Shown: one piece after another, positions 3,038-49,744 of the stretch
How positions within the stretch are numbered: the first letter of the stretch is position 1
How the letters are laid out: every line of letters starts with the position of its first letter
NCBI GenBank assembly: GCA_050260175.1
Contig: JBLNBS010000156.1
Location: 6,098 to 70,097, forward strand
Length of the DNA: 64,000 bases
From: Patescibacteria group bacterium
Lineage (GTDB): Bacteria; Bacillota; UBA4882; JAAYXC01
Reading direction: 5' to 3'
Translations under genes and position numbers: made by a program
Notes under the pieces: generated by a model
What the model was told of the DNA's origin: nothing
Database searches by the model: none
Seen by the model: only the letters and a program-made list of their open reading frames with translations

Positions 3038-3146
3038 TGTGTGGCCGGTTTTCCCCTCCCTGCGCCGAAAAAGAGGGAATCGAAGAGGTGAGGGGACACG
3101 CTTTACCCGGACAAGGCAGGATTCCCCGGGCTGGGCAGCGAAAAGG

Positions 3147-4880
3147 ATGGCATCACCAAGACAAAGGGTGAAACGTGTGACCCTCCTCGCCGACTGCGAA
3201 GCTCTGGGAGCGATCCTCGTGCGCCGGGGATCGATCGACGCGGACCAGCTCGAGCGGGCCCTGGCCGAGCAGAAGGAATCCGGCCGCCCGCTCGGCGCCG
3301 TCCTCGTGGAGAGGGGCTATGCCGCGGAGACCGCCGTGGCGCAGGCCCTCGCCGAGCAGCTCGGCCTCGAATACTGCGAGCCCGCCGCGATGGAGATCCC
3401 GTCCGCGGCCCTGGCCGCCCTCACTCCCCGCCTGGCCGAGCGTTTCAAGGTGGTGCCGCTGCGGTTGGAGGAAGGCCGCTTGACCGTGGCGGTCTCCGAT
3501 CCGTTCGACCTGGAGCGGCTCGACCTCCTGCGCGACCTGACGGGCCTGGCGCTCCGCCCGGCCCTGGCCACCGGCCAAGCCATCGAGGACGCCCTCCGGC
3601 GTTATTACAGGGGTGGCGGCGAAACGGTCGCGGCCGTGCTGGAAGGACTCGACGAGACGGACCTCCTCATCCTCCAGAACGAGGAAGGCATCTCGGATCT
3701 GGCCGCGCTCGAGTCCATCGCCAACGAGGCGCCCATCATCCGCCTGGTCAACCTGCTCCTGGTCAACGCGGTCAAGGCCGAGGCCTCCGATGTGCATCTC
3801 GAGCCCTTTGAGGACGAGGTCAAGGTCCGATACCGCATCGACGGCATCCTGTACGAGGTCGACGCCCCGCCCAAACGCCTCTACCCCGCGGTCCTCTCCC
3901 GCATCAAGCTCATGGCGGGCATGGACATCACGGAAAAGCGCCTGCCCCAGGACGGCCGCATCCGCCTGCGCATGGCCGAGCGGGACCTGGACCTCCGTGT
4001 GGCCGTGGCGCCCACCCTCCACGGCGAGAGCGTCGTGCTGCGCATCCTGAACCGCCAGAACATGCTCTTTTCCCTCGAGACGCTGGGGTTTTCCCCCCAT
4101 ACGCTCGCGCAGTTCACCAAGCTCATCGAGCGGCCCCACGGCATGATCCTGGTCACCGGGCCCACCGGCAGCGGCAAGACGACCACCCTCTACGCGGTGC
4201 TCGCCAAGCTCAACATCACGGGCCGCAAGATTATCACCATCGAGGACCCGGTGGAGTACGAGCTCAAAGGCGTCAACCAGATGCAGGTCAACCCCAAGAT
4301 CAACTTCGGCTTTGCCCAGGGTATGAGGACCATCGTCCGCCACGACCCAGACGTCATCCTGGTGGGCGAGATCCGCGACCGCGAGACGGCCGAGGTGGCC
4401 ATCCAGTCCGCGCTCACCGGCCATCTCGTCTTTTCCACCCTGCACACCAACGACGCGGCGGGCGCCTTTACCCGCCTCTTGGACATGGGCATCGAGGAGT
4501 ACCTGGTGGCCTCCACCATCCGCGGCGTCCTGGCCCAGCGCCTGGTCAGGCGCATCTGCCCGGCGTGCCGGACCAGCCGGTCCATCACCGCGGAGGAGTT
4601 GGAGCGCCTGGGCGCGGAGATTCCCCCCGGGCAGACGGTGCATTGGGGCGCGGGATGCCCGCGGTGCAACCGGATCGGCTACCGGGGCCAGGTGGGCCTC
4701 TACGAGCTGCTCCTGACCTCCCCGGAGATCGAGAGTATGGTCATGGCCAGGACCAGCAGCAGCCGCCTGCGGGAGCAGGCCGTCAAGGAGGGGTTGGTGA
4801 CGTTGCGCCAGGACGGCGTGGCCAAGGTCAGGGAAGGCGTCACGAGCGTCGGCGAGGTGCTGCGCGTGACCCAGGAGTGA
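3147..4880 (+). CDS. gspE: Type II secretion / type IV pilus assembly ATPase GspE
   Basis: N-terminal MshEN/T2SSE_N-like domain (LGAILVRRGSIDADQLERALAEQKESGRPLGAVLVERG). Walker A GPTGSGKTT, Walker B ILVGEIRD, His box GHLVFSTLHTNDA. Tetracysteine motif CPAC...CPRC, typical of GspE-class ATPases. Confidence 0.93.
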   Translation: MASPRQRVKRVTLLADCEALGAILVRRGSIDADQLERALAEQKESGRPLGAVLVERGYAAETAVAQALAEQLGLEYCEPAAMEIPSAALAALTPRLAERFKVVPLRLEEGRLTVAVSDPFDLERLDLLRDLTGLALRPALATGQAIEDALRRYYRGGGETVAAVLEGLDETDLLILQNEEGISDLAALESIANEAPIIRLVNLLLVNAVKAEASDVHLEPFEDEVKVRYRIDGILYEVDAPPKRLYPAVLSRIKLMAGMDITEKRLPQDGRIRLRMAERDLDLRVAVAPTLHGESVVLRILNRQNMLFSLETLGFSPHTLAQFTKLIERPHGMILVTGPTGSGKTTTLYAVLAKLNITGRKIITIEDPVEYELKGVNQMQVNPKINFGFAQGMRTIVRHDPDVILVGEIRDRETAEVAIQSALTGHLVFSTLHTNDAAGAFTRLLDMGIEEYLVASTIRGVLAQRLVRRICPACRTSRSITAEELERLGAEIPPGQTVHWGAGCPRCNRIGYRGQVGLYELLLTSPEIESMVMARTSSSRLREQAVKEGLVTLRQDGVAKVREGVTSVGEVLRVTQE

Positions 4881-4890
4881 CCCAGAAGAA

Positions 4891-4980
4891 CCCCCGGGTT
4901 GAAACCCGGGGAAGCTTTGGTACATCCGTGTACGTCGCTTACCCTTTAGCCCATCCTGGGCGGGGGCGGCTTTGGTACAT
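4891..4980 (+). repeat. Copy of modular REP family (modules H+G+partial G)
   Basis: CCCCCGGGTTGAAACCCGGGG hairpin followed by AGCTTTGGTACATCCGTGTACGTCGC...GGGCGGCTTTGGTACAT. Near-identical to the units at 16241, 17127 and 17939. Confidence 0.85.
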
Positions 4981-5019
4981 AGAATCGCATGAAATCGGTA
5001 TGTTGCCTGATCTGCATAA

Positions 5020-5175
5020 TTGCTTTACGTGATTAGAAATGATTTAACAAGATTAACATGATTTCATGATTTACACAGATTATTTGTCTATTAGTTTATC
5101 TTTATTAATGATTTTAATCTTAAATCTTGTTAATCCCATTAATCATGTAAATCATGTGATGTCGTTTCCTGTTTT
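5020..5175 (+). repeat. AT-rich island with phased TAATC/GATTA repeats and a GTTAATCC core
   Basis: ...TTTTAATCTTAAATCTTGTTAATCCCATTAATCATGTAAATCATGTG... in an otherwise GC-rich context. Lies between gspE and gspF. Confidence 0.7.
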
Positions 5176-5259
5176 ATGTGTTTATCAGTCCAAGAACGGT
5201 TTTTCACAGCGCTTCTAGTATGTGTAATACTAGTTTGTACCAGGGGTGGTCTTTGCTCC

Positions 5260-6465
5260 ATGGCGGACTTTACTTACCAGGCGGCGGACGCGGGCGGCCG
5301 CACCACGAGCGGTCGCATCAACGCGCCGTCGCGGCACGAGGCCATGGACGCCCTCCGCGCCAAGGGGCTTATTCCGTTACGTCTGGCCGAAGCCGCGGCC
5401 CGAGAGACGCGGCGCGATTCCGCGGGCAAGCCCAAAAGCCGGGATGTGCTCGCCTTTACCCAGCAGCTGGCGACCCTGGTGGGAGCGGGCCTGCAGCTGG
5501 ACCGGGCGCTCGCGATCATGGCGGGGCTCGCGCGCGGGGACCGGATGGGCGCCACGCTCGCCGCCATCCGCCGCGACGTCCAGGAAGGGGTCGCGTTTTC
5601 CACTGCGCTGGAGCAGCATCCGCGGCTTTTCAGCCGGATCTACGTCAACATGGTGCGCGCCGGCGAGGCGGGCGGCGTGCTGCCCGTCGTCCTGCGGCGG
5701 CTGGCCCAGACCATCGAGGAGGAACGCGAACTCCGTTCCTTCGTTATGGGCGCCCTGCTCTATCCGGCGGTTGTGGCCGCGGTCAGTTTTCTCGCCGCCT
5801 GCGTGCTGCTGCTCGTCGTCGTCCCCTCCTTCGAACGGATTTTTGCCAAGATTAACCAGGATCTCCCCGCCATCACCCGTCTGACCGTGGCGGTCAGCCA
5901 CGGCCTCAAGGCATACGGCCTCTGGATCGCCGGGGGCCTAGCCGCCGCGGCCCTCGCGGCCTGGCGGGCCGTCCGGCAGCCGGCGGGCAGGGCGGTCCTG
6001 GACCGCGTTTACCTGCGTTTTCCTTACTTCGGCGTCCTCTACCTCAAGGTGTTGACCGTAAGGTTGACGCGGACCATGGCCATGCTGGTGGGAGCCGGGG
6101 TCTCCGTGCTGCAGACCTTTGCCGTGGTCAAGGAGACGGTGGGCAACAGTGTCGTGGCCGCCGCCCTGGCCCGCGCCGGGCAGGAGATCAAGGAGGGCGG
6201 CGGCGTCGCCAGGCGGCTCGAGGCCCAGCGCATCCTCCCCCCCCTGGCCGTGCAGATGATCGCCGTGGGCGAGGAGACCGGGGAACTGGCCTCCATGCTC
6301 GACCAGGTCGCCAAGGGCTACGACGCAGAGGTCCGCCTGGCGGTGAGGAACCTCCTTTCCCTGATGGAACCGGTTTTGATCCTCTGCCTGACGGCGATGA
6401 CGCTCCTCATCGCCCTCTCGATCCTTATCCCCCTGGTGAGCATGAATACGGGCGGTGTTTTTTAG
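5260..6465 (+). CDS. gspF: Type II secretion inner-membrane platform protein GspF
   Basis: N-terminus MADFTYQAADAGGRTTSGRINAPSRHEAMDALRAKGLIPLRL is typical of GspF/PilC. Two GspF-type repeats (LATLVGAGLQLDRAL, MLVGAGVSVLQTF). Hydrophobic TM segments. Confidence 0.92.
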   Translation: MADFTYQAADAGGRTTSGRINAPSRHEAMDALRAKGLIPLRLAEAAARETRRDSAGKPKSRDVLAFTQQLATLVGAGLQLDRALAIMAGLARGDRMGATLAAIRRDVQEGVAFSTALEQHPRLFSRIYVNMVRAGEAGGVLPVVLRRLAQTIEEERELRSFVMGALLYPAVVAAVSFLAACVLLLVVVPSFERIFAKINQDLPAITRLTVAVSHGLKAYGLWIAGGLAAAALAAWRAVRQPAGRAVLDRVYLRFPYFGVLYLKVLTVRLTRTMAMLVGAGVSVLQTFAVVKETVGNSVVAAALARAGQEIKEGGGVARRLEAQRILPPLAVQMIAVGEETGELASMLDQVAKGYDAEVRLAVRNLLSLMEPVLILCLTAMTLLIALSILIPLVSMNTGGVF

Positions 6466-6500
6466 TCCGGAACAAATCGGCATAATGGGGTGTGATCGTG

Positions 6501-6938
6501 ATGCGTCGTTCCGAGCGCGGGTTTTCCCTGATCGAGATCACCGCGGTATTGCTCCTCATGGCCGCTTTCGCGGTGATCGTGGCGCCCCAGGTCATCCGGT
6601 CGGTGGAAAAAGGCAGGGTCAACGCGGGCAAGTCGCAGATCCAGAGCCTCAAAAGCGTCCTGAACCAGTACAAGCTGGAAAACGGAGCCTACCCCACAAC
6701 GGAGCAGGGCCTCGACGCCCTCTACGAAAAGCCCACCGTGCCGCCGGTCCCGGAGAACTGGGACGGGCCCTACGTCGAGGACCCGGTCAAGGAGGACCCC
6801 TGGCACCACCCGCTGGTATACAGGTGCCCGGGATTGCACAACAAGAACGGCTACGACCTCATGAGCTACGGCGCTGACGGCGTCGAGGGCGGCACGGGTT
6901 ACGACGCAGACATCACCAACTGGACGCAGACCAGATGA
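6501..6938 (+). CDS. gspG: Major pseudopilin GspG
   Basis: Class III signal MRRSERG|FSLIEITAVLLLMA with Glu at +5. GspG body: QIQSLKSVLNQYKLENGAYPTTEQGLDALYEKP...WDGPYVE...DPWHHPLVYRCPG...YDLMSYGADGVEGGTGYDADITNW. Confidence 0.92.
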   Translation: MRRSERGFSLIEITAVLLLMAAFAVIVAPQVIRSVEKGRVNAGKSQIQSLKSVLNQYKLENGAYPTTEQGLDALYEKPTVPPVPENWDGPYVEDPVKEDPWHHPLVYRCPGLHNKNGYDLMSYGADGVEGGTGYDADITNWTQTR

Positions 6939-7360
6939 AGGTGCATCCCGGCGGTTTCACCCTGCTGGAGGTCACGGCGGTCCTGGTCGTCCTGGCCCTG
7001 TTGACGGTCTTTGCCCTGCCGGGCCTCGTCAGGGGCACGGCAGGAGCGGAGGTGCGGCTCTGCCGCGACCAGCTCCGCCGCGATCTCCGTGCGGCGCGGG
7101 CCGAAGCGGTAGGCAAGATGCGCGAGACGGCCGTGTTTTTCCAGGGCACCGTCTATACCATGGATCTCGGCGGTGAACCACTCGAGCGAAGCCTGCCGGG
7201 AGGGTTCTCCTTCGTGCGGGTGGCCCTGGGGGGAGAGGTGGAGGAGGGGCTGAGGTTTTGGCCGGACGGGCGCAGTAACGGCGCGGCCATCGAGGCGGCG
7301 GCCGGGGGGCGCGTCTGCCGGGTCACGGTGCGGGAGGACGGCAGCCTTGTCTTTGAATAG
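6935..7360 (+). CDS. gspH: Minor pseudopilin, GspH-like
   Basis: Prepilin-type N-terminus GGFTLLEVTAVLVVLALL. Size and operon position after gspG. Start overlaps the gspG stop. Confidence 0.7.
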   Translation: MKVHPGGFTLLEVTAVLVVLALLTVFALPGLVRGTAGAEVRLCRDQLRRDLRAARAEAVGKMRETAVFFQGTVYTMDLGGEPLERSLPGGFSFVRVALGGEVEEGLRFWPDGRSNGAAIEAAAGGRVCRVTVREDGSLVFE

Positions 7361-7706
7361 GGGCACCCGCGGCTTTACCCTGCTCGAGGTGGTGGCGGCC
7401 ATGATGCTGCTCGGCGTGGGCCTCGCCATCCTCTACACCGGCTACATGCAGGCGGCAAACCTCGAGGCCAAAGCGGCCGAGACGGGCACGGCCTATATCC
7501 TGGCCCGGGCAAAGCTGGCCCAGGCGGAGGCGGGCGAGGAGACGGGCGCCGCGGGGCGATGCGAGGGCGCGCCCGGCTTTGCCTGGAAGCTGGAACGCGC
7601 GCCGCTCCCCGGCACAGGGCTGGCGCGCCTGTCGGCCACGGTCTCCTGGCAGGACGCGCGGGAGCGCTCCGTGACGGTCTGGACGCTGGTGAACGATGGC
7701 ACGTAG
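7347..7706 (+). CDS. gspI: Minor pseudopilin, GspI-like
   Basis: RGFTLLEVVAAMMLLGVGLAIL N-terminus, about 119 aa, overlaps both neighbours. Confidence 0.7.
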   Translation: MSLNRGTRGFTLLEVVAAMMLLGVGLAILYTGYMQAANLEAKAAETGTAYILARAKLAQAEAGEETGAAGRCEGAPGFAWKLERAPLPGTGLARLSATVSWQDARERSVTVWTLVNDGT

Positions 7707-8292
7707 AGGGCAAGAAGGCATGACCCTGCTCGAGCTGAACGCCGCGCTCCTCGTCACGAGCCTGGTCGTGCTCACCGTGGCCTCGTCGCTGGGGGCGATC
7801 TCCGGGGCCTGGGACCGGAGCGAGCGCCAGGCGGCGGGCAGGGAGGCCACCAGGGTCCTGGCCCGCCGTCTGGGCAGGGAACTGGGCTCCCTGAGCCGGG
7901 GCCCCTTCGGCTTGGAGCCCGGGTTCAGCGGCGAAGCGGATGGCATGAGTTTTACCGCCGTGGGCGACGAGGGCGCGCGCCGCGTCTCGCTCGCCCTGCG
8001 CGCGGGAAGGATCGTGCTCACGGAGACCCTGCTCCTGCGCGCCGATGATCAAAACGTCAAGGAGATCCCCCTGGCCGACGGGGTGAGGGAGTGGCGGCTC
8101 GCCTATTACGATCCAGCCGCAAAGCAGTGGCGGGACCGCTGGTCCCCGGAGGAGCGGGGGCGCCCCCCCTCGCTCGTGCGGATCGAGGTGTTCCTGACCG
8201 GGGCCGCAAGGACGCGCCGCGCGCCCGTCCTGGTCGTCCCCCTTTACATGGGCGGCATCGCGGCCGCCGGGGAGGCGGATCCCGGTGGCTGA
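7696..8292 (+). CDS. gspJ: Minor pseudopilin, GspJ-like
   Basis: EGMTLLELNAALLVTSLVVL N-terminus, about 198 aa, position between the I-like and K-like genes. Confidence 0.65.
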   Translation: MARRGQEGMTLLELNAALLVTSLVVLTVASSLGAISGAWDRSERQAAGREATRVLARRLGRELGSLSRGPFGLEPGFSGEADGMSFTAVGDEGARRVSLALRAGRIVLTETLLLRADDQNVKEIPLADGVREWRLAYYDPAAKQWRDRWSPEERGRPPSLVRIEVFLTGAARTRRAPVLVVPLYMGGIAAAGEADPGG

Positions 8293-9508
8293 ACGGAACC
8301 GCGCAAGCGGCGCCGCGCTGCTCGTCGTCATCTGGGCGCTGGCCGTCATCGGCGCGGTCGTCGCAGCCTATTTCGGCCGCGGCCTGCTCGAGGTCAAGCT
8401 AGCCCAGGACCTGCGGCAGGAGATGGAGGCCAGGGCCCTGGCCCAGGCGGGCCTCGCCTGTTTCATCCGCCGCTTCCTGGACGACCGGGACGGGACGGAC
8501 GATGCGGGTTCGGCCTGGCTGTTCGCCGGGGACGACGCGCCGCCTGATTTTCCCGAGGGCAGCGTCGAGGTGAGGGTGGCCGATCTCGGCAGCAGGATCA
8601 ACCTCAACCTGGACGGCGAGGACGGGCTCCTGCAGGCCTTTGGGGGCAGAAGAGAGCCGGTCGACGCCATCCTGGACTGGCGCGACGCCGATGACGAGCC
8701 GCGCACCGGCGGCGCCGAGGCGGACTACTACGCCGGGCTGACCCCTCCCATGCGGGCGGCCAACGGCATGTTCCGCAGCCCCGAGGAGGCGCTCCTCGTC
8801 AAGGGTCTGGCCAAGTTCCCGAGGACCCTGGCGAACGAGACCACGGTCTTTGGCCGGGCCAATCCCAACCTGATCGGCACGGAGACCTGGACCGCGATCC
8901 TCGTGGCCGCCGGTTTCGACGAGCTCCGGGTCGAGCTGCTCTCCGAGCAGTTCACCCAGGTCCGGGGCGACGCCATCAAGGCGGGCCGCGTACCCTTTGC
9001 CCAGCCGGACGATCTAAAACAGCTCCAGAGCGCCACCTACCTGACGCTGGAGCGGTTGCTCCCCTATCTCACCTTTACGGGGCGGATCAATCCCAATCTG
9101 GCGAGCGAGCGGTCCCTGCGGGCGGCCCTGGCCGTCCTGGGGGTACAGGCGGATAAAGCTAAGGCCATCGTCGCGGCCAGGGACGCCGCCCCATTTCGAG
9201 AGCTAGGCGCGCTGCAGGGCTTTCTGGTCAAGACCGATCAAAAATTAGTCAGCAAGGACTGGACCGACCAGGTCTTTACCCTCCAGACGACCCTGGCGGG
9301 CGTGGAGATCGTCGGCAAGACAAAAAGCGGCGCCCTCCACCGCCTCGTGGCCGTGGTGGAGAGGTTTCATCCGCCGCGGGAAACGGAGCTTTGGCAATGC
9401 CGGTTCCTCTACTGGCGCGAGTGGCCTGGCGAGGGCTTCCCCGTCCTGCCCGAGGAGGACGGGGAACAGGGCGCCGGGGAGCCGGAACTCGAGGAAACGG
9501 CGGGCTGA
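8285..9508 (+). CDS. gspK: Minor pseudopilin GspK
   Basis: N-terminal hydrophobic segment without Glu+5 (SGAALLVVIWALAVIGAV), as in GspK. Signature ILDWRDADDEPRTGGAEADYYAGLTPPMRAANGMFRSPEEALLVKG. Confidence 0.85.
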   Translation: MAERNRASGAALLVVIWALAVIGAVVAAYFGRGLLEVKLAQDLRQEMEARALAQAGLACFIRRFLDDRDGTDDAGSAWLFAGDDAPPDFPEGSVEVRVADLGSRINLNLDGEDGLLQAFGGRREPVDAILDWRDADDEPRTGGAEADYYAGLTPPMRAANGMFRSPEEALLVKGLAKFPRTLANETTVFGRANPNLIGTETWTAILVAAGFDELRVELLSEQFTQVRGDAIKAGRVPFAQPDDLKQLQSATYLTLERLLPYLTFTGRINPNLASERSLRAALAVLGVQADKAKAIVAARDAAPFRELGALQGFLVKTDQKLVSKDWTDQVFTLQTTLAGVEIVGKTKSGALHRLVAVVERFHPPRETELWQCRFLYWREWPGEGFPVLPEEDGEQGAGEPELEETAG

Positions 9509-9535
9509 GCCGGTCTTGCAACCGGCTCCCCGCGC

Positions 9536-11065
9536 GTGATCGGAGGTCGCAAGGTGCGCCCACACTCTTTCTTTGGCTCTCGCGCCCATCCTGGCGGCGT
9601 GGTGGGATTCGACTGCGACGGCGATGAACTACACGCCGCGGAACTCCGCCTGACCGCGGGCGGCCCCTGCCTGGTTGCGGCCAGATCCATGCGCGTGGCG
9701 GGTGAGGTCTCCTCCCGCGGTGAACTGCTCTCCACCTACCTCCTGGAGATGCTCCGCGAGGGCGGCTTCCGCGCTGCGGCCGGGGCCATGGCCGTCCCCC
9801 GCGCCGGGGCCGTCGCCCGCGTCCTGGACCTCCCCCCGCTCAAGGCGGAATCGACCGGGCTGGCCGCGGCCGCCGCGCTCGAGGACCAGCTCCCCTTCCC
9901 CCCGTCCGAGCTCTGCCTGGGCTGGCGACGACAGGCCGGAAGCCGGGTGGTGCGCGCCGCCGCCGCCCGCCGCGCCGCGGTCGAGGAATGCCGGGCCGCC
10001 ATGACGGCCGCGGGTCTTTCCCCATCCCGCGTCGACGTGCGGCCCCTGGCAGCCGCCGCCGCTTTACATTACTGGCACGGCAGGAGTCTCGGCAATCGCA
10101 CCGCCGTCCTCCTGGAGCTGAGGCGCGCGGAGTCGGCCTTGATCTGCCTGCGCAAAGGCGAGGTTACTTACTCCCGTGCCCTGCCGGGCCTGGGGGAGGA
10201 GCCCGCGGCCGGCCTGCCGGGACTCGCGGCGGAACTCTCCTCCAGCCTCGCCATCCTGCGCGCCCGGCCGGACTGGGACGACCCGGGTTGCCTCTGGCTC
10301 GCCGGGATCTGTGCCGCGGATGCGGAGGTCCGCCGGACCTTGGCCGGGCTGCTCGGCCTGGCGCCCGAGGTCTGCCGGGCGGCATCGATCCCCGTCGCGG
10401 AAGGATCCCGCTTTGTCCAGGGAGCCGCGGCCGATCGTTTCGGTATGGGCCCCGAGGCCCCCCGGGAACTGGGGCCCGAGATGCTGGTCCCAATCGGGCT
10501 CTGCCTGGGCGCTCTGGGCCTGGCGGACATGGGACCTGACCTCCTGCCGGGGCTTTCCACGGACAAGCGGACCCGCCATCCCTTCCTCTCCCTCGCCGTC
10601 CCCCTGGGACTGACCGTGATCCTCGCCCTGGGCGGCCTCAGGTTCCTGGCGGCGGCCGGGCGCAGGCGGATGGAAGTGCGGCGGGCATGGCTCTCGGCCA
10701 ACGCCGGGCGGATCGCCGCCCTGGAGCGGCTGCAGGCCGAGACGGCGTCGCAGGCGCGCAGCTTTGCGCATCTCGACGGGTACGGGAAGGAATCCGCGGC
10801 GTATCTGGACTTTCTCCTTGCGCTGGACCAGGCCCTGCCGGCCGAGACCATCGTGACCCGCCTCTCGCTGGCCGGCGGGCGCGTGCAGACCCTCGAGGGC
10901 TACACGCCGTCGGTCTCCGTCCTTTTACGGCGGCTCAAGGCCGATCCGTCGCTCGCCCGCCTGAACCTGCGCGGCCAGGCCGTGGCCAGGACCGTCGGCG
11001 GGCGCACCATGGAGGTATTCGCGCTGGCGGGACCCATCGGCCGGGGTGGGGAGGAAAAGCCATGA
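9536..11065 (+). CDS. GspL-like assembly protein (PilM-like cytoplasmic actin-fold domain + TM + PilN-like periplasmic domain)
   Basis: About 500 aa in the position after gspK. N-terminus VGFDCDGDELHAAELRL... resembles PilM/GspL cytoplasmic domains. One TM (FLSLAVPLGLTVILALGGLRFL) followed by a roughly 130-aa tail. The start codon is uncertain. Confidence 0.6.
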   Translation: MIGGRKVRPHSFFGSRAHPGGVVGFDCDGDELHAAELRLTAGGPCLVAARSMRVAGEVSSRGELLSTYLLEMLREGGFRAAAGAMAVPRAGAVARVLDLPPLKAESTGLAAAAALEDQLPFPPSELCLGWRRQAGSRVVRAAAARRAAVEECRAAMTAAGLSPSRVDVRPLAAAAALHYWHGRSLGNRTAVLLELRRAESALICLRKGEVTYSRALPGLGEEPAAGLPGLAAELSSSLAILRARPDWDDPGCLWLAGICAADAEVRRTLAGLLGLAPEVCRAASIPVAEGSRFVQGAAADRFGMGPEAPRELGPEMLVPIGLCLGALGLADMGPDLLPGLSTDKRTRHPFLSLAVPLGLTVILALGGLRFLAAAGRRRMEVRRAWLSANAGRIAALERLQAETASQARSFAHLDGYGKESAAYLDFLLALDQALPAETIVTRLSLAGGRVQTLEGYTPSVSVLLRRLKADPSLARLNLRGQAVARTVGGRTMEVFALAGPIGRGGEEKP

Positions 11066-16240: not shown

Positions 16241-16478
16241 TTCCCCGGGCTGAACCCCGGGGCGGCTTTGGTACGTCCTTGTACGTCGCTCGCCCTTTAG
16301 CCCTTCCTGGGCGGGGGCGGCTTTGGTACGTCCTTGTACGTCGCCGCTTTTATGCCCATCCTGGGCGGAGCTAATCTCACCAACCCATCCATGGGTGATC
16401 CGGCCCATCCGTTCCCAGGGCCATTCATGGCCCTTCGTGAGATTAGCGCCGGTTTTTAGGCCGGCGTCGACCCATAAC
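16241..16478 (+). repeat. REP array (modules H, G, G, L, T)
   Basis: H = CCCCGGGCTGAACCCCGGGG. G = CGGCTTTGGTACGTCCTTGTACGTCGC (twice). L = GCTAATCTCACCAACCCATCCATGGG...CAGGGCCATTCATGGCCCTTCGTGAGATTAGC (long hairpin with a nested hairpin). T = GCGCCGGTTTTTAGGCCGGCGTC. Confidence 0.9.
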
Positions 16479-16794
16479 ATCCTGCCCAAATATCGGAAAA
16501 TTCGCCCGCTCGCTCCCCGACTCCTGCCAATCACCTGCCATTTGATGACAATGACAAACGAGACCGCCATATGCTGACGGCCTTCCAAAAAACAGTCATG
16601 AGTCGCGGGTCAGTCCCCAGTCACAGTCTCCGGTCCCCAGTCAAAAGCCTAAAAGTCGAAAGTCATAAAGCCCAAAGCCTAGATTCAACTAGGTGCCCCA
16701 TTGGCAAGCCGGAATCAGCGACCAACATTCCCGACTTGAAAACATCATCGGCGAGTCCTTATTATGTTTTAAGGCCCGCAAAACACAATAAGGA

Positions 16795-16960
16795 TTATCG
16801 TCCTTGATTTTGGTCCCTAAAGACCTGTAAGTATTGGTCAAAGACAAACAGCCGATTGCGCCGCCAGCCGGTGATCTCCTTCAGAGTCCCCATCTCAACC
16901 AGCGTGGCCACCAATTGATTGGCCGTGACATACCGCGATTCCTCATTTCGACTTCCTGTC
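16795..16960 (-). pseudogene. Remnant of a Fic-family-like protein C-terminus (winged-helix tail)
   Basis: Minus-strand frame reads ...EESRYVTANQLVATLVEMGTLKEITGWRRNRLFVFDQYLQVFRDQNQGR*. There is no upstream body and the frame is cut off by the REP array at about 16965. Lower-GC segment. Confidence 0.35.
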
Positions 16961-16965
16961 TGAAT

Positions 16966-17472
16966 CCCGGGGCTAATCTCACGAACCCATCCATGGGTGA
17001 TCCGATCTATCCGGTCTCTTAGTCCATCCGGCCCCAGGGCCGTTCACGGCCCTTCGTGAGATTAGCGCCGGTCTTTAGGCCGGCGTCGACCCATAACGCC
17101 GTTGGCCCAAAACCATCCCACATCTCTCCCCCCGGGTTGAAACCCGGGGCGGCTTTGGTACGTCCGTGTACGTCGCCGCTTTTATGCCCATCCTGGGCGG
17201 AGCTAATCTCACGAACCCATCCATGGATGGATCCGTTCCATCCGTTCCCAGGGCCGTTCACGGCCCTTCGTAAGATTAGCGCCGGTCTTTAGGCCGGCGT
17301 CAGCCAAAAATGCCGTTAGCCCAAAAACCATCCCACATCCCCCCCGGGTTGAAACCCGGGGCTAATCTCACGAACCCATCCATGGGTGATCCGGTTCATC
17401 CGATCTCAGGGTTCCATTCCCAGGGCCGTTCACGGCCCTCCGTAAGATTAGCGCCGGTCTTTAGGCCGGCGT
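16966..17472 (+). repeat. Three tandem, variably composed REP units (L+T; H+G+L+T; H+L+T)
   Basis: Units start near 16966, 17127 and 17340. The spacers themselves are repeated (GCCGTTGGCCCAAAACCATCCCACATC). The last T module contains the transposase stop codon. Confidence 0.9.
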
Positions 17473-17895
17473 CGATTCCCCGTCATCCCCGGTAATCTCC
17501 AACTCCTCCCTCAAAGTCCCCTTCCGATGGTGCATTTCCTGGTCAAGAACGTAATCCGTCACGTCTTGTTGGTCGCCGGGCGAGACGGTGAAAAGGCCGT
17601 AGCCGCTCTGCCAGGCGAATCCGCCGTTCGGCTCGGCCACATGGTTGACCCAGTGCGAGCTGGCGCCTTTCAGGTTGCCGATAAACTCAGCCACGGCGAG
17701 CCGCGGCGGGATGAAGACCAAACAATGAACGTGATTCGCTATGCCTCCCACGGCATAGGGGATGCCGTCCATCTGCCGGATCTTGGTTTTCATGTAATCA
17801 TGCAGCGCGCCCCGGTAGTGTTCGCCGATCAGCTTCTCCCGCATCTTTGTGCTCCAGACCACGTGGTACAATAGGCGGCAGAATTGCTTGGGCAC
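17461..17895 (-). CDS. IS200/IS605-family Y1 (HUH) transposase, RAYT-like
   Basis: YHVVWSTKMREKLI N-terminal motif. HUH motif HVHCLV. C-terminal catalytic Tyr motif YVLDQEMHH. 144 aa. Confidence 0.9.
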   Translation of the reverse strand: MPKQFCRLLYHVVWSTKMREKLIGEHYRGALHDYMKTKIRQMDGIPYAVGGIANHVHCLVFIPPRLAVAEFIGNLKGASSHWVNHVAEPNGGFAWQSGYGLFTVSPGDQQDVTDYVLDQEMHHRKGTLREELEITGDDGESTPA

Positions 17896-17938
17896 GATCG
17901 ATACCCCTCTCCCCCGCCTTCCATGGATTTATTCCATT

Positions 17939-18110
17939 TCCCCGGGTTGAAACCCGGGGCGGCTTTGGTACGTCCGTGTACGTCGCTCGCCCTTTAGCCC
18001 TTCCTGGGCGGGGGCGGCTTTGGTACGTCCGTGTACGTCGCCGCTTTTATGCCCATCCTGGGCGGGGCTAATCTCACCAACCCATCCATAGGCCGGCGTC
18101 AGCCCATAAC
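17939..18110 (+). repeat. REP array (H, G, G, internally deleted L, T)
   Basis: Near-identical to 16241-16478 except for a deletion inside module L (CCATCCAT|AGGCCGGCGTC). Confidence 0.9.
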
Positions 18111-18276
18111 ATCCTCGCGGGTCGCGAGTCAGCCGCTCACCCCGGTGTTTGAGATACCACCACTCTCTTACATAAAAGCGAGTGGCCTCATTTGCTTACG
18201 ATCTCGGTTCTCGCTTGCGCAAAAGGCCGCGGGACTCAAGATGCTCCCTGGCCAAACGGTTGAGAATGGCAAATAA

Positions 18277-29372: not shown

Positions 29373-29395
29373 TCCGTCGTTACCTGCACTAATTT

Positions 29396-29443
29396 CAGGG
29401 CCATTCATGGTCCTTCGTGAGATTAGCGGCGTCCTTTAGGGCA
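29396..29443 (+). repeat. Partial, diverged REP unit (3' half of module L + T)
   Basis: CAGGGCCATTCATGGTCCTTCGTGAGATTAGCGGCGTCCTTTAGGGC. Followed by a TAATC-phased AT-rich stretch (29461-29527). Confidence 0.8.
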
Positions 29444-29573
29444 CCGTTGGCAGAAAAGCAGTTATTACAACATCTATGCCTGGTTTATTGGAATCTGTGT
29501 TAATCCGTGTAATCTGTGGTTAAAAACCGGCTCTCGGTTTCGTTTCCTGTCTCTTGAAAAGGGGCGACTAAGC

Positions 29574-30440
29574 ATGAAGGTCTGCCGGACCATCGCCGAG
29601 CTGAGGGAAGCCCTGGCCCCGTCCCGTTCCGCCGGGCGGAGCATCGGCTTCGTGCCCACCATGGGCTACCTCCACGCGGGCCACCTCGCCCTCGCGGCTC
29701 GGGCCCGTACGGAGAACGACGTGGTGGTGGTGAGCATCTTCGTCAATCCGACGCAGTTCGGTCCCGCGGAGGATCTGGCGCGCTACCCCCGCGACCTGCC
29801 GCGCGATCTAAAGCTCTGCGAGGAAGCGGGGGTGGATCTCGTCTTTGCCCCGGAGCCCGGGGAGATGTACCCCGCCGGCTTTCAGACCCACGTGGAGGTG
29901 GAAAACCTCAGCAGGGGGCTCTGCGGCGCCAGGCGCCCCGGGCACTTTCGCGGCGTGGCCACGGTCGTGGTCAAGCTCTTCAACATCGTCCAGCCTACGC
30001 GGGCCTATTTCGGCGAAAAGGACGCCCAGCAACTCAGGGTCATCAGGCGCCTGGTCCGCGACCTGGACCTGCCGCTCGCGATCGTGCCCGTGCCCACCGT
30101 GCGCGAGCCGGACGGCCTGGCCATGAGCTCGCGCAATGTCTACCTGAGCGCCGAGGAGAGACGGGCGGCCCTGGTCCTCTACCGCGCCCTGCGCCTGGCG
30201 GAGGATCTTTTCGCCAGAGGCGAACGCGACGCCGCCGCCATCGCGGCCGGGATGGAGGCCCTGATCGCCGCCGAACCCCTGGCCAGGATGGACTATCTGG
30301 AGGTTGTGGACGACGAGACCCTTGAGCCCGTGCAAAAGCTGGAGCGGCCCGCGCTGGTCGCACTGGCTGTGTATATCGGCAAAACGAGGCTGATCGACAA
30401 CACGGTATTGAGGGAAAAGGGGAAAGGGGAAAGGCAATAG
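29574..30440 (+). CDS. panC: Pantoate-beta-alanine ligase PanC
   Basis: VPTMGYLHAGHLAL (HxGH). VSIFVNPTQF. The C-terminal tail REKGKGERQ is encoded by the start of the purine-rich repeat array. Confidence 0.95.
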   Translation: MKVCRTIAELREALAPSRSAGRSIGFVPTMGYLHAGHLALAARARTENDVVVVSIFVNPTQFGPAEDLARYPRDLPRDLKLCEEAGVDLVFAPEPGEMYPAGFQTHVEVENLSRGLCGARRPGHFRGVATVVVKLFNIVQPTRAYFGEKDAQQLRVIRRLVRDLDLPLAIVPVPTVREPDGLAMSSRNVYLSAEERRAALVLYRALRLAEDLFARGERDAAAIAAGMEALIAAEPLARMDYLEVVDDETLEPVQKLERPALVALAVYIGKTRLIDNTVLREKGKGERQ

Positions 30441-31649: not shown

Positions 31650-33011
31650 ATGCGCATACGCGAACGACTGCTCTGGCCTTTTTTGGGCCTGGCCATCCTG
31701 CTCGTGGGGGCCTGGGGATTCAGCCAGTACTCCGCGCGGCGGCTGTGGGAGAACCGGGTGGAAACCCAGTACCAGCGGGCTTTTAACGACCTGACCCAGA
31801 ACCTGGGCGGGCTCGAGACGCAGCTCGCCAAGGCCTCGGTCAGCGGCACGCCGCGGTTTCTACGCTCCACCCTGGCCGAGATCTGGCGGCTGGCGTACGC
31901 GGCCCAGGAAAAACTGGGGCTGCTGCCGCTCGGCGCCGTGGAGCTGACCAGGATGAAGATGCTCCTGGCCAAGGTGGGCGCTTTTTCCTACCGCGTCACC
32001 GACCGGCCGGCCGAGGAGATCCGCCTCACGGATCAGGAATGGAACACCCTGCAGGGCCTGCGCAGTCAGGCCCGGTACGTCTCGGGCCAGCTCACGTCCA
32101 TGCAGACCAACATCATCCAGAACAACCTGCGTTGGGTGGACGTGGACCGCCTGGGCCGCGGCACGCGTCTGACCGCCGCTGCCCTGGCGCGGCGCGTGGG
32201 CGTCAACAAGGTCACCAAGAGCCTCGTCATGGTCGAGAACGGCCTGCGGCGCATGCCCGAGCCTGGTTTTCCCGAGAGCGAGGTCATTTTCCCATATAAA
32301 CCCAAGGGCCTGACCGGCGCGAAGATCACGCCGGCCGCGGGCCGCCGCATCGCCTCCACCTTCGCCGGCGGGGGCGAGGCGCGCTATCTCGGCCGGACCA
32401 GGGGTGACTTCCCGACCTTTATCTACTCCGTCGCCAAGGGCGGCAAGGCGGGCGCCGCCGCTCCCACCAGGATCAGCGTGACCGAAAAGGGCGGCCACGT
32501 GGCCTGGATGCTCTCCGAGCGCATACTGGGTCCGCGCAGGATCAACCTTGCCAGGGCCACCGCGGCCGCGCGGGATTTTGCGGAAAAGAAGGGCCTGCGC
32601 GACATGGCCGTCGTCTCGCGGGAGGAGTTCGGCGCCGTCGATGTCATCACCATGGTTCCCTGCGTGGACGGCGTCTGGTACTACCCCGAGATGGTCAAGA
32701 TCTCGGTCGCCATGGACGACGGCCGTGTGGTGGGGTATGAGGGCGTCCCGTACCTGACCTTTCACGATCCCGCCCGGCGCCCCCAGCCCGCGCGGCTCAC
32801 CGAGGAGGACGCGCGGCGCCGCGTCAACCCTCGCCTCGTGGTGAGGGGCGTGCGCCGGGCGGTCACGCTCGGCCAAAAGAACAAGGAGGTCATGGCCTAC
32901 GAGGTGGACGGCACCATGAAGGGGGAGCGTTTCCTCGTTTACATCGACGCCGCTGACGGCAGCGAGGTCAAGATCCGCCGGGTCGACGCGAACGGGGTGG
33001 AGATCGACTGA
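31650..33011 (+). CDS. ypeB: Germination protein YpeB
   Basis: N-terminal TM. YpeB-type N-domain (ENRVETQYQRAFNDLTQNLGGLETQLAKA...). C-terminal PepSY-like repeats. Confidence 0.85.
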   Translation: MRIRERLLWPFLGLAILLVGAWGFSQYSARRLWENRVETQYQRAFNDLTQNLGGLETQLAKASVSGTPRFLRSTLAEIWRLAYAAQEKLGLLPLGAVELTRMKMLLAKVGAFSYRVTDRPAEEIRLTDQEWNTLQGLRSQARYVSGQLTSMQTNIIQNNLRWVDVDRLGRGTRLTAAALARRVGVNKVTKSLVMVENGLRRMPEPGFPESEVIFPYKPKGLTGAKITPAAGRRIASTFAGGGEARYLGRTRGDFPTFIYSVAKGGKAGAAAPTRISVTEKGGHVAWMLSERILGPRRINLARATAAARDFAEKKGLRDMAVVSREEFGAVDVITMVPCVDGVWYYPEMVKISVAMDDGRVVGYEGVPYLTFHDPARRPQPARLTEEDARRRVNPRLVVRGVRRAVTLGQKNKEVMAYEVDGTMKGERFLVYIDAADGSEVKIRRVDANGVEID

Positions 33012-47224: not shown

Positions 47225-49744
47225 TCATTTCTTATCCTCGTCCATGTCGATGACGATGGGGCCCGCGGTGCTGCCCGTGCCCTGTATATCGGCCACGATC
47301 TGGTTGATCTGCGCGGGATCCTCGATCAGGCGCGGCGTGATGATGATGACGAACTCGTCCTGGCGCTTGACCCGCTTCGTGTTTTGAAAGAGCTTGCCGA
47401 TGATGGGGAGGTAGCCGAGGATGGGCACCTTGGAAACGTTGATGTCCTCGGATTCCTGGATAAAACCGCTGATGACCACGGTGTAACCGTCCATGATCCG
47501 CACGGTGCTCTGGGTGGAGCGCTCCATGACGCCGGGCAGGGCCGCGATCTCGCTGCTCACCTCGGGGCTCGTGGTGAACTGGCTGATGCTGGGCTTGAGC
47601 TCCAGCGTGATCTCCTTGTTCGCGGAGACCCAGGGGGTCATGGTCAGCTGGATACCGGAGTCGATGGTGATGTAACGGTACTCCGTGGTCGTGGTCGTCG
47701 TGGAGCTGCTCGTCGTGGGCACGGGGTAATTGTATTTCGTGACGACGTTGAACTGGGCCGCGAAACCGCTCAGGGTGGCGATCTTTGGGTTGGCCCTCAC
47801 CCTGGCCCGGCCGCTCGTGATGGCCGCGTTGATGCTGGCCGTGAGCTGGGCCGCGGCCGGCGTGTTGGGGCTGATGATCGTGCCGATCAGGCTGCCCAGG
47901 TCCCATTTGAGCGTCTGCCCGTCGAGGGTGAGCGTGGCCGAGGAGAGACCGCCGCCCTTGGTCTCGGTCTCTGAAAACTGCAAAACCAGCGTATCGAAGA
48001 GGATCATCGGCGCCATGACGTCGATCTTGGCCAGGAAATCGCGGACCTGCGCCCGGTATCCCTCGTTGCCGGTCACCACGATGCTGTTCGTCTCCTTGAC
48101 GAGCACCAGCTCGGTCTTGGGAATGCCCGGCGGGAAGAGCTTAAGGGCGTCCTCGGCCTTCATGTGCCTTAACGCCACGACTTCCGACCTGATCGTCTCC
48201 TGGGGCACATCCACCTTGGCGAGGAAGGCCTTGAGCGCCGCGATGAGCTTGGGCGTGCCGTTGACGAGGAGGGAGTTGGTCTCCTTGAGCAGGATGATGT
48301 TCTGCCTCGGGTAGACCGTCGGCAACGAGTTCCAGATGCTCTCGGCCGTGATGTAGCGGAGGGGGATGACCTCGGACTGGATGAAATCCGTGTCGCCCTG
48401 GCGGAAATTGACGCCCTCCCCGACCAGGTAGGTGTCGCCGTCCTTGCGGAACGTGAAGGTGGTTCCCGCCAGGAGCCTGCCCAGCGCCTCCTCGAAACTA
48501 GCGTTCACCAGGCGGACGCTGGTGACGTTCCAGTTCACGTTGGCGTAGATGACGAGGTTGTAGTTCTTCTTCTTGGCCAGTTCGGTGGCTGCCGTGGCCA
48601 GACTGGCGTTGTTGACCTCGAGATCGATCGTGCCGTCCTCGTTGATGGAGATGACGATGCTCTGGCCGGTCATGAGCCTCTTTACCGTAAAGGCGTTCCC
48701 CTCGCGTTCGAGCACGAAGCCGTTGGCCTCCAGGAAGGCCGAGAGGCCCTCCACCAGGCCGGCTTGGGCGATATTGCCGCTGGCGCGGCCGCTCACGTCA
48801 CGATCCGGCAGGATGGTGATGCCGGCCTGCCGCGCCACCTCGGAGAGGATCTCCGTGATCTCCGCGTTGCGCACGTCCAGGGTTAATAGGCCCCCGCTGA
48901 CCTTGACGCCCCCCGTGCTCTCGCCCCGGGAGAAGCGGTAGTGCCCGCCTTCCTTGAAGACGCGCAGCCCGTTGGCGGCGGCGATGGCGCCCAGCGCCTC
49001 GTCCAGGGGCAGAGGCGCGAAAAAGACGTTCACCTGCACGGCCGCGGCAGCCTGGTCGCAGATGACCGCCAGGCCCGTGCGGCTCGACAACTCCCGCACG
49101 AGGACGCTCAGGGGCACGCCCGACAGGTCGGCGCTGAGCCGGCCCTCCTCGTATTTGACGGACATGCTGCCGAGGCTGGCGACCTGGCGGAAGATATAGG
49201 CGCCGCTGCGCTTTTCCACCTGGCAGCGGGCGCTCTCCGCCAAAAGCGAGATGAGATCTGCCAGGGGGAGCCTGCCCAGAACCAGGTTGAGGTGTTCGGT
49301 GGGCTCCTGCCCGGTGAGGGTGAGGTTCACGCCGGTGACGCGGGTCAGCTCGGCCAGGACCGCGCGGAGCTTGGCCATCTGTAGCTCCAGCGAGTAAAGG
49401 CCCTCGGCCTCTTTCGTCACCTTGATAATCTGGCGCGTGACCGTGTAGAACCTGCCTTCCTTTTTGACCTGGAGGCGGTACATGGCGGCCAGCCTGTTCA
49501 GGCAGTCCTCAAAGGTCACGTTCTCGAAATGGAAAGAGACCGCGCCGGTCACGGTCTCGTCCATGAAAACGCTCACCCCGGCCTGGGCCGCCAGGGCGTT
49601 CAGCACGTCGCGCAGGTCGGCGTTCTTGTAGTTGACGGAGTCCAGGACCTGGTTCGCAGCGGTCACGGAAAGGGAGACGATCAGCAAGCCGAGGAGCACC
49701 AGGCCCAAAAGGCGCCGCAAATAAGGACTGGCACTGTTACGCAT
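47225..49744 (-). CDS. gspD: Secretin (GspD/PilQ family) with five N0/STN-like modules
   Basis: Signal peptide. Five roughly 70-aa modules of the pattern ...A.L..VL..LA...G....... Two N1-type domains (IPLRYITAESI..., VVALRHMKAEDA...). C-terminal secretin domain with VSKVPILGYLPIIGKLFQ. Confidence 0.88.
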   Translation of the reverse strand: MRNSASPYLRRLLGLVLLGLLIVSLSVTAANQVLDSVNYKNADLRDVLNALAAQAGVSVFMDETVTGAVSFHFENVTFEDCLNRLAAMYRLQVKKEGRFYTVTRQIIKVTKEAEGLYSLELQMAKLRAVLAELTRVTGVNLTLTGQEPTEHLNLVLGRLPLADLISLLAESARCQVEKRSGAYIFRQVASLGSMSVKYEEGRLSADLSGVPLSVLVRELSSRTGLAVICDQAAAAVQVNVFFAPLPLDEALGAIAAANGLRVFKEGGHYRFSRGESTGGVKVSGGLLTLDVRNAEITEILSEVARQAGITILPDRDVSGRASGNIAQAGLVEGLSAFLEANGFVLEREGNAFTVKRLMTGQSIVISINEDGTIDLEVNNASLATAATELAKKKNYNLVIYANVNWNVTSVRLVNASFEEALGRLLAGTTFTFRKDGDTYLVGEGVNFRQGDTDFIQSEVIPLRYITAESIWNSLPTVYPRQNIILLKETNSLLVNGTPKLIAALKAFLAKVDVPQETIRSEVVALRHMKAEDALKLFPPGIPKTELVLVKETNSIVVTGNEGYRAQVRDFLAKIDVMAPMILFDTLVLQFSETETKGGGLSSATLTLDGQTLKWDLGSLIGTIISPNTPAAAQLTASINAAITSGRARVRANPKIATLSGFAAQFNVVTKYNYPVPTTSSSTTTTTTEYRYITIDSGIQLTMTPWVSANKEITLELKPSISQFTTSPEVSSEIAALPGVMERSTQSTVRIMDGYTVVISGFIQESEDINVSKVPILGYLPIIGKLFQNTKRVKRQDEFVIIITPRLIEDPAQINQIVADIQGTGSTAGPIVIDMDEDKK

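Follow-up and report, generated by a model that had tools for sequence, protein, structure and literature searches.

We analysed a 64-kb stretch of contig JBLNBS010000156.1 (the whole stretch is called the window here, and positions are counted from its first letter). It contains tnpA, a gene for a 144-aa HUH/Y1 single-strand DNA transposase, which is surrounded by composite hairpin units of 135-245 nt. The units are built from four modules, H, G, L and T, and from the spacers between these modules, sp and sp2. Five units (A to E) lie around tnpA, all in the orientation of the gene, and two fragments of units lie about 12 kb off, one on each side. The features are as follows.

16241-16483, minus strand: unit A, complete (H G sp G sp2 L T; nhmmer E = 9.1e-27), with a variant H at 16243-16262, G at 16264-16289 and 16319-16344, L at 16370-16447, T at 16446-16468 and the leader at 16469-16483
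16955-17102, minus strand: unit B, partial or degenerate H, then L and T (from repeat and complementarity analysis, nhmmer/blastn), with the degenerate or partial H at 16955-16971, L at 16972-17066, T at 17065-17087 and a leader
17103-17127: repeated spacer between units B and C
17128-17316, minus strand: unit C (H G sp2 L T; nhmmer E = 6.3e-29), with H at 17130-17149, G at 17151-17176, sp2, L at 17202-17280, T at 17279-17301 and a leader
17317-17339: repeated spacer between units C and D
17340-17475, minus strand: unit D (H L T; nhmmer E = 6.7e-26), directly downstream of tnpA, with H at 17342-17361, L at 17361-17452 and T at 17451-17473, the last overlapping the final four tnpA codons and the stop
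17461-17895, minus strand: tnpA, with a GTG start and a TAA stop
17896-17937, minus strand: unique leader of 42 nt between H of unit E and the tnpA start, containing GGGGGAGAGGGG
17938-18115, minus strand: unit E (H G sp G sp2 and an L/T fusion), upstream of tnpA, with H at 17940-17959, G at 17961-17986 and 18016-18041, a remnant of the L left arm at 18067-18088, a T remnant at 18089-18100 and the leader at 18101-18115
4891-4978, minus strand: unit fragment away from tnpA, with a truncated G followed by sp, G and H (E = 2e-32 in blastn against unit E)
29389-29449, minus strand: unit fragment away from tnpA and of a second subfamily, with the leader, a variant T, the left arm of L and the inner hairpin (nhmmer E = 5.1e-11)

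The tnpA gene and the repeat units around it

The open reading frame (ORF) of tnpA contains the motifs YHVVWSTK, HVHCLV and YVLDQEMHH, by which an initial annotation had recognized a 144-aa HUH/Y1 protein. This identification was confirmed by a match of residues 7-119 to Pfam Y1_Tnp (PF01797; E = 3.9e-21), and H55-V-H57 and Y115 align with the HuH motif and the tyrosine of the ISDra2-type TnpA. The GTG start is preceded by the purine-rich ribosome-binding stretch in the 42-nt leader. At the other end the gene runs into unit D: the TAA stop (17461-17463) forms the loop of this unit's module T and the C-terminal residues STPA are encoded by the 3' arm of the same module, as the annotation had read them. 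It had also named additional transposase copies and a tnpB partner as marks of an ordinary IS200/IS605 element; tnpA proved to be single-copy in the window by tblastn, and no OrfB (tnpB) domain was found among 20 scanned ORFs of the window. A consensus scan detected no sigma-70-like promoter or intrinsic terminator tied to the units or to tnpA.

Same-orientation arrays of the four modules on both sides of tnpA, with repeated spacers, were likewise borne out. The modules occur at 4-10 sites each in the window against 0-0.2 expected from dinucleotide shuffles (H, 5 sites against 0.11; G, 6 against 0.00; T, 4 against 0.00; L arm, 10 against 0.22). The spacers between units B, C and D are alike at 88% identity. 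Units E and A are 96% identical across 155 nt and have the leader AGGATGTTATGGG in common; in unit E, an internal deletion of about 62 nt has fused the left arm of L to the right half of T. Between units A and B lies ~470 nt of non-repeat DNA (16484-16954).

The dispersed copies that had been annotated near 4891 and 29396 were recovered at 4891-4978 and 29389-29449. The first directly follows the stop codon of a type II secretion system (T2SS) ATPase gene and ends exactly at the H hairpin. The second sits between panB and panC, and a complete unit of its subfamily is present in another contig (L110). Sensitive blastn and nhmmer searches detected no more copies of the unit in the window, which leaves two partial copies beyond the locus in 62 kb of it.

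Structure of the units

Read along the sense strand of tnpA, where the modules are written T', L', G' and H', a unit consists of a leader of ~15 nt followed by T', L', optionally one or two G', and H'. T' is a hairpin with a GC stem, one conserved mismatch and a TAAA or TGAA loop. L' is a long palindrome with the arms GCTAATCTCAC and GTGAGATTAGC, and inside it are a small covarying hairpin, AGGGCCGTGAACGGCCCT, and an invariant palindrome, CCATCCATGGATGG. The initial annotation had given the L hairpin as roughly 75 nt long; the hairpin is present, and its measured length is 78-95 nt. The G' modules carry small hairpins of their own, and H' is the hairpin CCCCGGGTTTCAACCCGGGG with a TTCA loop. 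Conserved 5' feet stand before the terminal hairpins, AGATTAGC before H' and YYGAC before T'.

In unit B, H together with the left arm is 81% complementary to the right arm together with T across 31 nt. Because the one half is in this way an inverted repeat of the other, we describe the unit as two elements of the type 'conserved tag + GC hairpin' that face each other around a spacer, an inverted doublet which resembles a REPIN (repetitive extragenic palindromic (REP) doublet forming a hairpin). The inverted doublets that the annotation had suggested looking for are thus found in the H-L-T unit itself. When unit C was folded as single-stranded DNA and compared with shuffles, we obtained z = -5.4 for the plus strand and z = -4.6 for the minus strand.

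The edges of the unit were located by comparison with unique DNA in unit A, the 4891 fragment and L110. On one side similarity ends 0-1 nt from the H' stem, and on the other about 15-20 nt before T'. Across organisms with a T'-L'-H' unit, we observed compensatory changes in three pairs of the T' stem and the small inner hairpin, one of which occurs with four pair types, and the loop-closing pair of H' alternates between T-A and C-G. The same comparison showed no variation in the L arms, the inner palindrome or the loops. G-T wobble pairs are confined to the sense strand (alignment columns 97/108, 29/119 and 34/114). This confinement hints that the sense strand is the folded strand, and it fits top-strand DNA and RNA equally well.

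The tetranucleotide GT[AG]G, which canonical REPs carry at the 5' foot of an imperfect hairpin of 20-40 nt, is absent at the feet of the unit hairpins, and no Rfam family matches the units above threshold. At permissive thresholds Rfam returned two sub-threshold matches only, Acido-Lenti-1 and HgcC, and both were rejected.

Classification of the transposase

The initial annotation had placed the enzyme nearer to a classical IS200 TnpA than to the REP-associated tyrosine transposases (RAYTs) of the E. coli type, and the profile scores agree with this placement. TnpA scores 64.4 bits with the NCBIfam model IS200/IS605 (NF033573; cut-off 55) and 15.4 bits with the model RayT (NF047646; cut-off 80). 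Its tyrosine motif is YVLDQ (Y---Q) and not the Y---NP of class-2 RAYTs, and a BLASTP comparison with E. coli K-12 RayT gave E = 6.9, i.e. no similarity. The best matches in the PDB are the ISDra2-type TnpA structures of Deinococcus (2fyx and 2xm3; E about 1e-9 to 1e-10), followed by Sulfolobus and IS608 proteins; E. coli TnpAREP (4ER8-type) is not among the PDB matches. Judged by its sequence, TnpA is IS200-type and not an E. coli-type RAYT.

Among the Y1 transposases, subclass 1.2 has been defined by the signature WQ, Y---Q--HH, a HuH motif DH[IV]H, a median length of 148 aa and a short C-terminal tail; it is close to IS200, low-copy and without insertion sequence (IS) properties, was listed as 'REP: no', and was found mostly in Cyanobacteria and Bacteroidetes (PMC6006769). 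WQ (AWQSGYG), Y---Q--HH, the length and the short conserved C-terminal tail are present in all 14 database homologues of TnpA. We also collected more distant relatives by a profile scan with one genome per species. In a set of 81 relatives, Y---Q--HH is present in 67, and the proteins have a median length of 146 aa. The HuH motif of the window TnpA is NHVH, and that of the homologues P0002-P0006 and of most of the 81 relatives is DH[VIA]H. On these motifs TnpA is assigned to TnpAY1 subclass 1.2. The initial annotation had suggested an independent domestication or a still-active non-autonomous element system. The first idea needs revision in that the case is not one isolated to the host genome: the protein belongs to a described and widespread IS200-related subclass (PMC6006769).

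The best-scoring relatives in a library of 1.84 billion proteins (P0016-P0035) are 270-300 aa long and have two tandem Y1_Tnp domains. P0016 has a degenerate first HuH (DRVH) and an intact second one (DHVH), and Y---Q--HH is kept in both halves. Such a protein resembles a pseudo-dimer made of one chain, the enzyme normally acting as a dimer.

Close homologues and units without the gene

Close homologues are rare, with 14 proteins in a search of 5.8 billion. In two of their loci, L081 (71% identity) and L082 (64%), a T'-L'-H' unit adjoins tnpA. L082 has the unit on both sides of the gene, and the final 20 nt of tnpA recur, with small differences, in its upstream unit. In L109, from a Bacillota metagenome-assembled genome (MAG), two tandem units are present upstream and none downstream; the H' hairpin beside tnpA is deleted in this locus. 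The tnpA genes of L081 (1-620) and L109 (1-700, minus strand) are 97% identical at the DNA level, and past the end of similarity their flanks contain different AT-rich genes, a HAD hydrolase in one and an unrelated ORF in the other.

Units were also found without the gene. L095 has two tandem T'-L'-G'-H' units and no tnpA in the 8 kb covered. In L110 a single T'-L'-H' unit stands alone after pdxS; it belongs to the subfamily of the window fragment at 29389. Scans for the pattern of inner palindrome plus arm gave only L095 and L109 in the genome collection, and L110 and L111 in the metagenome collection. We read L111 as a chance match, since nothing beyond the pattern itself matches. An exact scan of the genome collection for the L-T junction gave no match. 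A scan of the same collection for the L-hairpin pattern gave 26 loci. L095 was the one real case, and the other 25, each a single match in an unrelated taxon, were rejected as due to chance.

Flanking repeats and copy number in the subclass

The profile scan yielded 78 relative loci in 78 different genomes, which include complete chromosomes, and no genome was hit twice. Judged by record title, they belong to at least ten phyla, among them Chloroflexota, Bacteroidota, Acidobacteriota, Verrucomicrobiota, Armatimonadota, Zixibacteria and Bacillota. We compared the 700 nt upstream of each gene with the 700 nt downstream by blastn, and observed a repeat shared by both flanks in 54 of 77 relatives, mostly right beside the gene, whereas the controls gave 3 of 78 for pseudo-genes placed in the same loci and 1 of 50 for T2SS loci. 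The best flank match was direct in 28 loci and inverted in 26. Hairpins were 3.6-fold enriched in the flanks (772 against 212 in control DNA). Among the phyla, Chloroflexota often have such repeats (21/26), and Bacteroidota have them least often (6/15). This low rate in Bacteroidota, together with the use of a GTAG-tagged search, may explain why the 2018 survey of the subclass saw no REPs.

The layout of the unit is kept in L112, L113, L116 and L133 at 38-51% identity, and in L190 at 36% protein identity. The plan common to these distant loci is one of GC hairpins with TGAA/TTCA loops around a long-armed palindrome, often in tandem. The window is at the proliferative end of the range seen for the repeats of the subclass. 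The idea of a universal tag 5' of the hairpins (xTAGC) was dropped after a systematic hairpin scan, which gave no common tag and only the excess of hairpins. The literature searched contains no description of these composite REPIN-like units or of their generality across the subclass.

A subclass 1.2 gene of the Bacteroidota, that of Bernardetia sp. (L193; chromid NZ_CP147018.1, 1386-1482 and 1992-2064), has 2+2 inverted 32-nt repeats around it instead. The repeat is AAGCTGCGTAGCTGCGTAATATTTGTAGAAAT, with two copies upstream and two inverted copies downstream. In a tblastn search of this record, two places matched tnpA.

Genomic neighbourhoods

Different species of Zixibacteria, Verrucomicrobiota and Cyclobacteriaceae/Roseivirga have the gene among the same neighbours, as do several pairs of Chloroflexota, even where the TnpAs are only 55-60% identical. 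For Zixibacteria and Verrucomicrobiota the lower limit is about 57-70% TnpA identity. The comparison of neighbourhoods was made with L129-L137, L151 and L152 against L133/L146/L158/L179 and L177/L178/L182. Searches of plasmids and viral contigs gave no close relative: the best plasmid match has 33% identity, and among viral contigs the best match over the full length has 34% and one partial match has 40%. L190 and L191 contain no OrfB.

Proposed mechanism and alternative explanations

We observed a single-copy gene of a defined family, units of a common anatomy whose stems covary, a layout that is kept in relatives and copies of the unit that stand without the gene. We read the locus as a REPtron-like cognate pair, probably, if only by a modest measure, consisting of a single-copy Y1 gene of subclass 1.2 and of the composite palindromic units that its product most likely recognises. 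It is neither an E. coli-type RAYT nor a typical IS200.

If it works as the enzymes of IS608 and ISDra2 and E. coli TnpAREP do, TnpA would bind the hairpins of the units in single-stranded DNA, for example on the lagging-strand template. It would cut beside the hairpins through a 5'-phosphotyrosine link and then rejoin the strands, and units could be excised and reinserted independently of tnpA. The outcome in the lineage of the window would be a tandem array at tnpA together with a few solo or partial copies elsewhere. The 5'-foot sequences may act as guide or tag, and the conserved mismatch of T' and the T-rich tetraloops may be recognition features. Binding and cleavage by TnpA, the choice of the active strand and any benefit to the host are inferred here, the mechanism from anatomy and homology.

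A rather unlikely, though serious, alternative is that we are dealing with an autonomous low-copy IS200-type IS of the form unit-tnpA-unit, in which nothing is domesticated. The tandem, solo and fragmentary units would then be deletion derivatives of the kind of miniature inverted-repeat or palindrome-associated transposable elements (MITEs or PATEs), or solo ends produced when the flanking direct repeats recombine. This account is in line with the score of TnpA above the NCBIfam IS200 equivalog cut-off, with the units being direct repeats on one strand around the gene, like the ends of IS200/IS605 elements, and with the truncated ORF that unit B adjoins. Several observations speak for it and weigh against a resident cognate pair. 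Anaerolineales TnpAs that are 81-92% identical stand in at least four different neighbourhoods, a pair of TnpAs 91% identical is shared by a Chloracidobacterium MAG (Acidobacteriota) and a 'Clostridia' MAG in unrelated neighbourhoods, and L081 and L109 cease to be homologous about 10 nt past the stop codon. The scatter in Anaerolineales and the divergence of L081 and L109 suggest that the gene cassette itself moves. Moreover, extra copies of the repeat were present within +-3 kb in just 4 of 49 relative loci, there were none in 20 kb of L190, and the Bernardetia repeat is absent elsewhere in its 601-kb replicon; repeats that are mostly limited to the two flanks fit IS ends as well as REPs. Against the cognate pair it also counts that the papers searched contain no biochemical characterisation of any member of subclass 1.2.

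Copy number and place are among the points that disfavour such an IS. True IS200 has a mean of 4.8 near-identical copies (PMC6006769), whereas there was one match per genome in the 78 genomes of the scan. Neither the scanned ORFs of the window nor L190/L191 contain tnpB, plasmids and phages gave no close relative, and the position of the gene on the chromosome is shared between species of Zixibacteria, of Verrucomicrobiota and of Cyclobacteriaceae/Roseivirga, among others. Units without a gene nearby (L095, L110) are also unexpected for it, and the subclass had already been judged to be without IS properties (PMC6006769). The subclass seems to hold both moving and fixed copies.

The units might, on the other hand, act mainly as structured RNA, either as elements of untranslated regions, as a small RNA that controls or assists TnpA, or as elements that stabilise or attenuate mRNA. 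We regard this as improbable. All units have the orientation of tnpA, one of them just before its start codon and one over its stop, their structure is backed by covariation with G-T wobbles on the sense strand only, and the dispersed copies lie just after or between genes, all of which an RNA would explain. However, the absence of an Rfam match above threshold and of a sigma-70 promoter or intrinsic terminator pattern tied to the units disagrees with it. The sequence conservation of the long arms and the inner palindrome, which show no covariation, points to recognition of the nucleic-acid sequence by a protein. Y1 transposases such as those of IS608 and ISDra2 use DNA hairpins and are not known to have an RNA partner. 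Tandem multiplication and truncated copies are in addition typical of mobile DNA. To a chance likeness, or an artefact of assembling a repetitive region, we give almost no credence. The contig is of the metagenomic type and repeats are prone to mis-assembly, but the module counts are far above those of shuffles, the units differ by point changes and indels and are not collapsed duplicates, and the architecture recurs in independent assemblies of other organisms.

REP/RAYT is the best-studied case of a single-copy transposase with small, non-autonomous palindromes that spread. The locus and its relatives have an IS200-clade enzyme with a RAYT-like life-style, combined with different, much larger and modular DNA units, in poorly studied phyla. 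Going beyond the cognate pair of the window, we tentatively suggest that subclass 1.2, an offshoot within the IS200 clade, could be a second line of single-strand DNA enzymes with associated repeats, one set apart by its sequences from the RAYTs of class 2. These enzymes would act on long modular units of REPIN-like design (hairpin, long-armed palindrome, hairpin), which would have been missed in 2018 owing to the GTAG-tagged search and the sampling of mainly Cyanobacteria and Bacteroidetes, and which would be actively multiplying in the lineage of the window. As some clades are fixed and others move, the subclass would provide a natural series for the transition from an IS to a resident enzyme. 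The locus also supplies defined candidate DNA substrates, with conserved arms, covarying hairpins, and a conserved mismatch and conserved loop sequences.

Host and neighbouring sequences

The T2SS ATPase is closest to those of uncultured Bacillota MAGs (56-59% identity), the next phyla being at <=48% apart from one Armatimonadota segment at 54%. The window also encodes a secretin, other T2SS/pilus parts, YpeB and a LytR-CpsA-Psr protein, and its G+C content is about 67%. The Bacillota-closest ATPase, the secretin and YpeB are consistent with the Firmicutes-like diderm host of the initial annotation. The spore-germination gene ypeB beside a secretin and a T2SS/type IV pilus cluster is an unusual pairing (31650-33011, 47225-49744 and 3039-11065), which hints at a sporulating diderm lineage of Bacillota. 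The neighbours of tnpA are genes for a GH38 mannosidase and an M48 peptidase.

One further feature lies between units A and B.

16795-16938, minus strand: 3' remnant of a small ORF, 47 codons and a stop, which matches the last 47 residues of P0015 (a protein of 77 aa) at 77% identity

The 5' part of this ORF is missing where unit B starts. The remnant has no Pfam match, and we read it as a putative winged-helix-like protein. A likeness to the C-terminus of Fic proteins was considered and dropped, as it has no Pfam support and the sole match is the unannotated P0015. The remnant is followed by ~300 nt of lower-G+C, low-complexity, AGTC-rich DNA (16484-16794). Both may be former cargo of the element or a disrupted neighbour.

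Directly downstream of the two dispersed fragments are AT-rich stretches (4985-5175 and 29445-29560, in a genome of 67% G+C), just upstream of the next genes, T2SS-F at 5176 and panC at 29574. They share TAATC..GT.AATC.GTG (5140-5157 and 29501-29518) and CGTTTCCTGT. These stretches could be promoter regions or another small repeat.

Comparison with known systems

The closest family in sequence and structure is that of IS200/IS605 (IS200, IS608, ISDra2) with its palindrome and MITE derivatives. Hairpins T' and H' stand in one orientation on both sides of tnpA and may correspond to the hairpin-bearing ends of these elements, although here they are parts of composite units of 135-245 nt. A short conserved sequence lies 5' of each hairpin foot. 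In IS608 the guide sequences lie 5' of the hairpin foot. The putative ends are whole composite palindromes of 110-245 nt, whereas those of IS200/IS605 are single hairpins of ~20-30 nt. The locus differs also in having no tnpB, in the one match per genome in 78 genomes and in not being on plasmids.

'IS200 Group 3' has no duplicates and none on plasmids, and has abundant flanking 16-mers, the repeats themselves being undescribed (PMC5581495). Compared by description only, it is alike in its RAYT-like behaviour.

With TnpAY1 subclass 1.2 (PMC6006769) the locus shares a short, core-only protein (144 aa against the published median of 148), WQ, Y---Q--HH and the short conserved C-terminal tail, as well as an IS200-close sequence, low copy number and no IS behaviour. 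The HuH of the window TnpA is NHVH in place of the published DH[IV]H. The subclass as published was 'REP: no' and had no typical terminal hairpins, whereas tnpA and most of its relatives are flanked by elaborate structured repeats. The published range was mostly Cyanobacteria and Bacteroidetes, and relatives with repeats are now seen, by record title, in Chloroflexota, Acidobacteriota, Verrucomicrobiota, Armatimonadota, Zixibacteria and Bacillota.

REPtrons (Nunvar 2010; PMC3116915; PMC3333891) likewise have a single-copy Y1 gene bracketed by its own palindromic repeats, and these repeats also form inverted doublets, fall into subfamilies and have copies at other intergenic sites. The enzyme of our locus, however, is not of class 2, and its repeats lack the GT[AG]G tag. 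In contrast to REPs, the units described here are long and modular, stand as direct repeats around the gene and are apparently few per genome.

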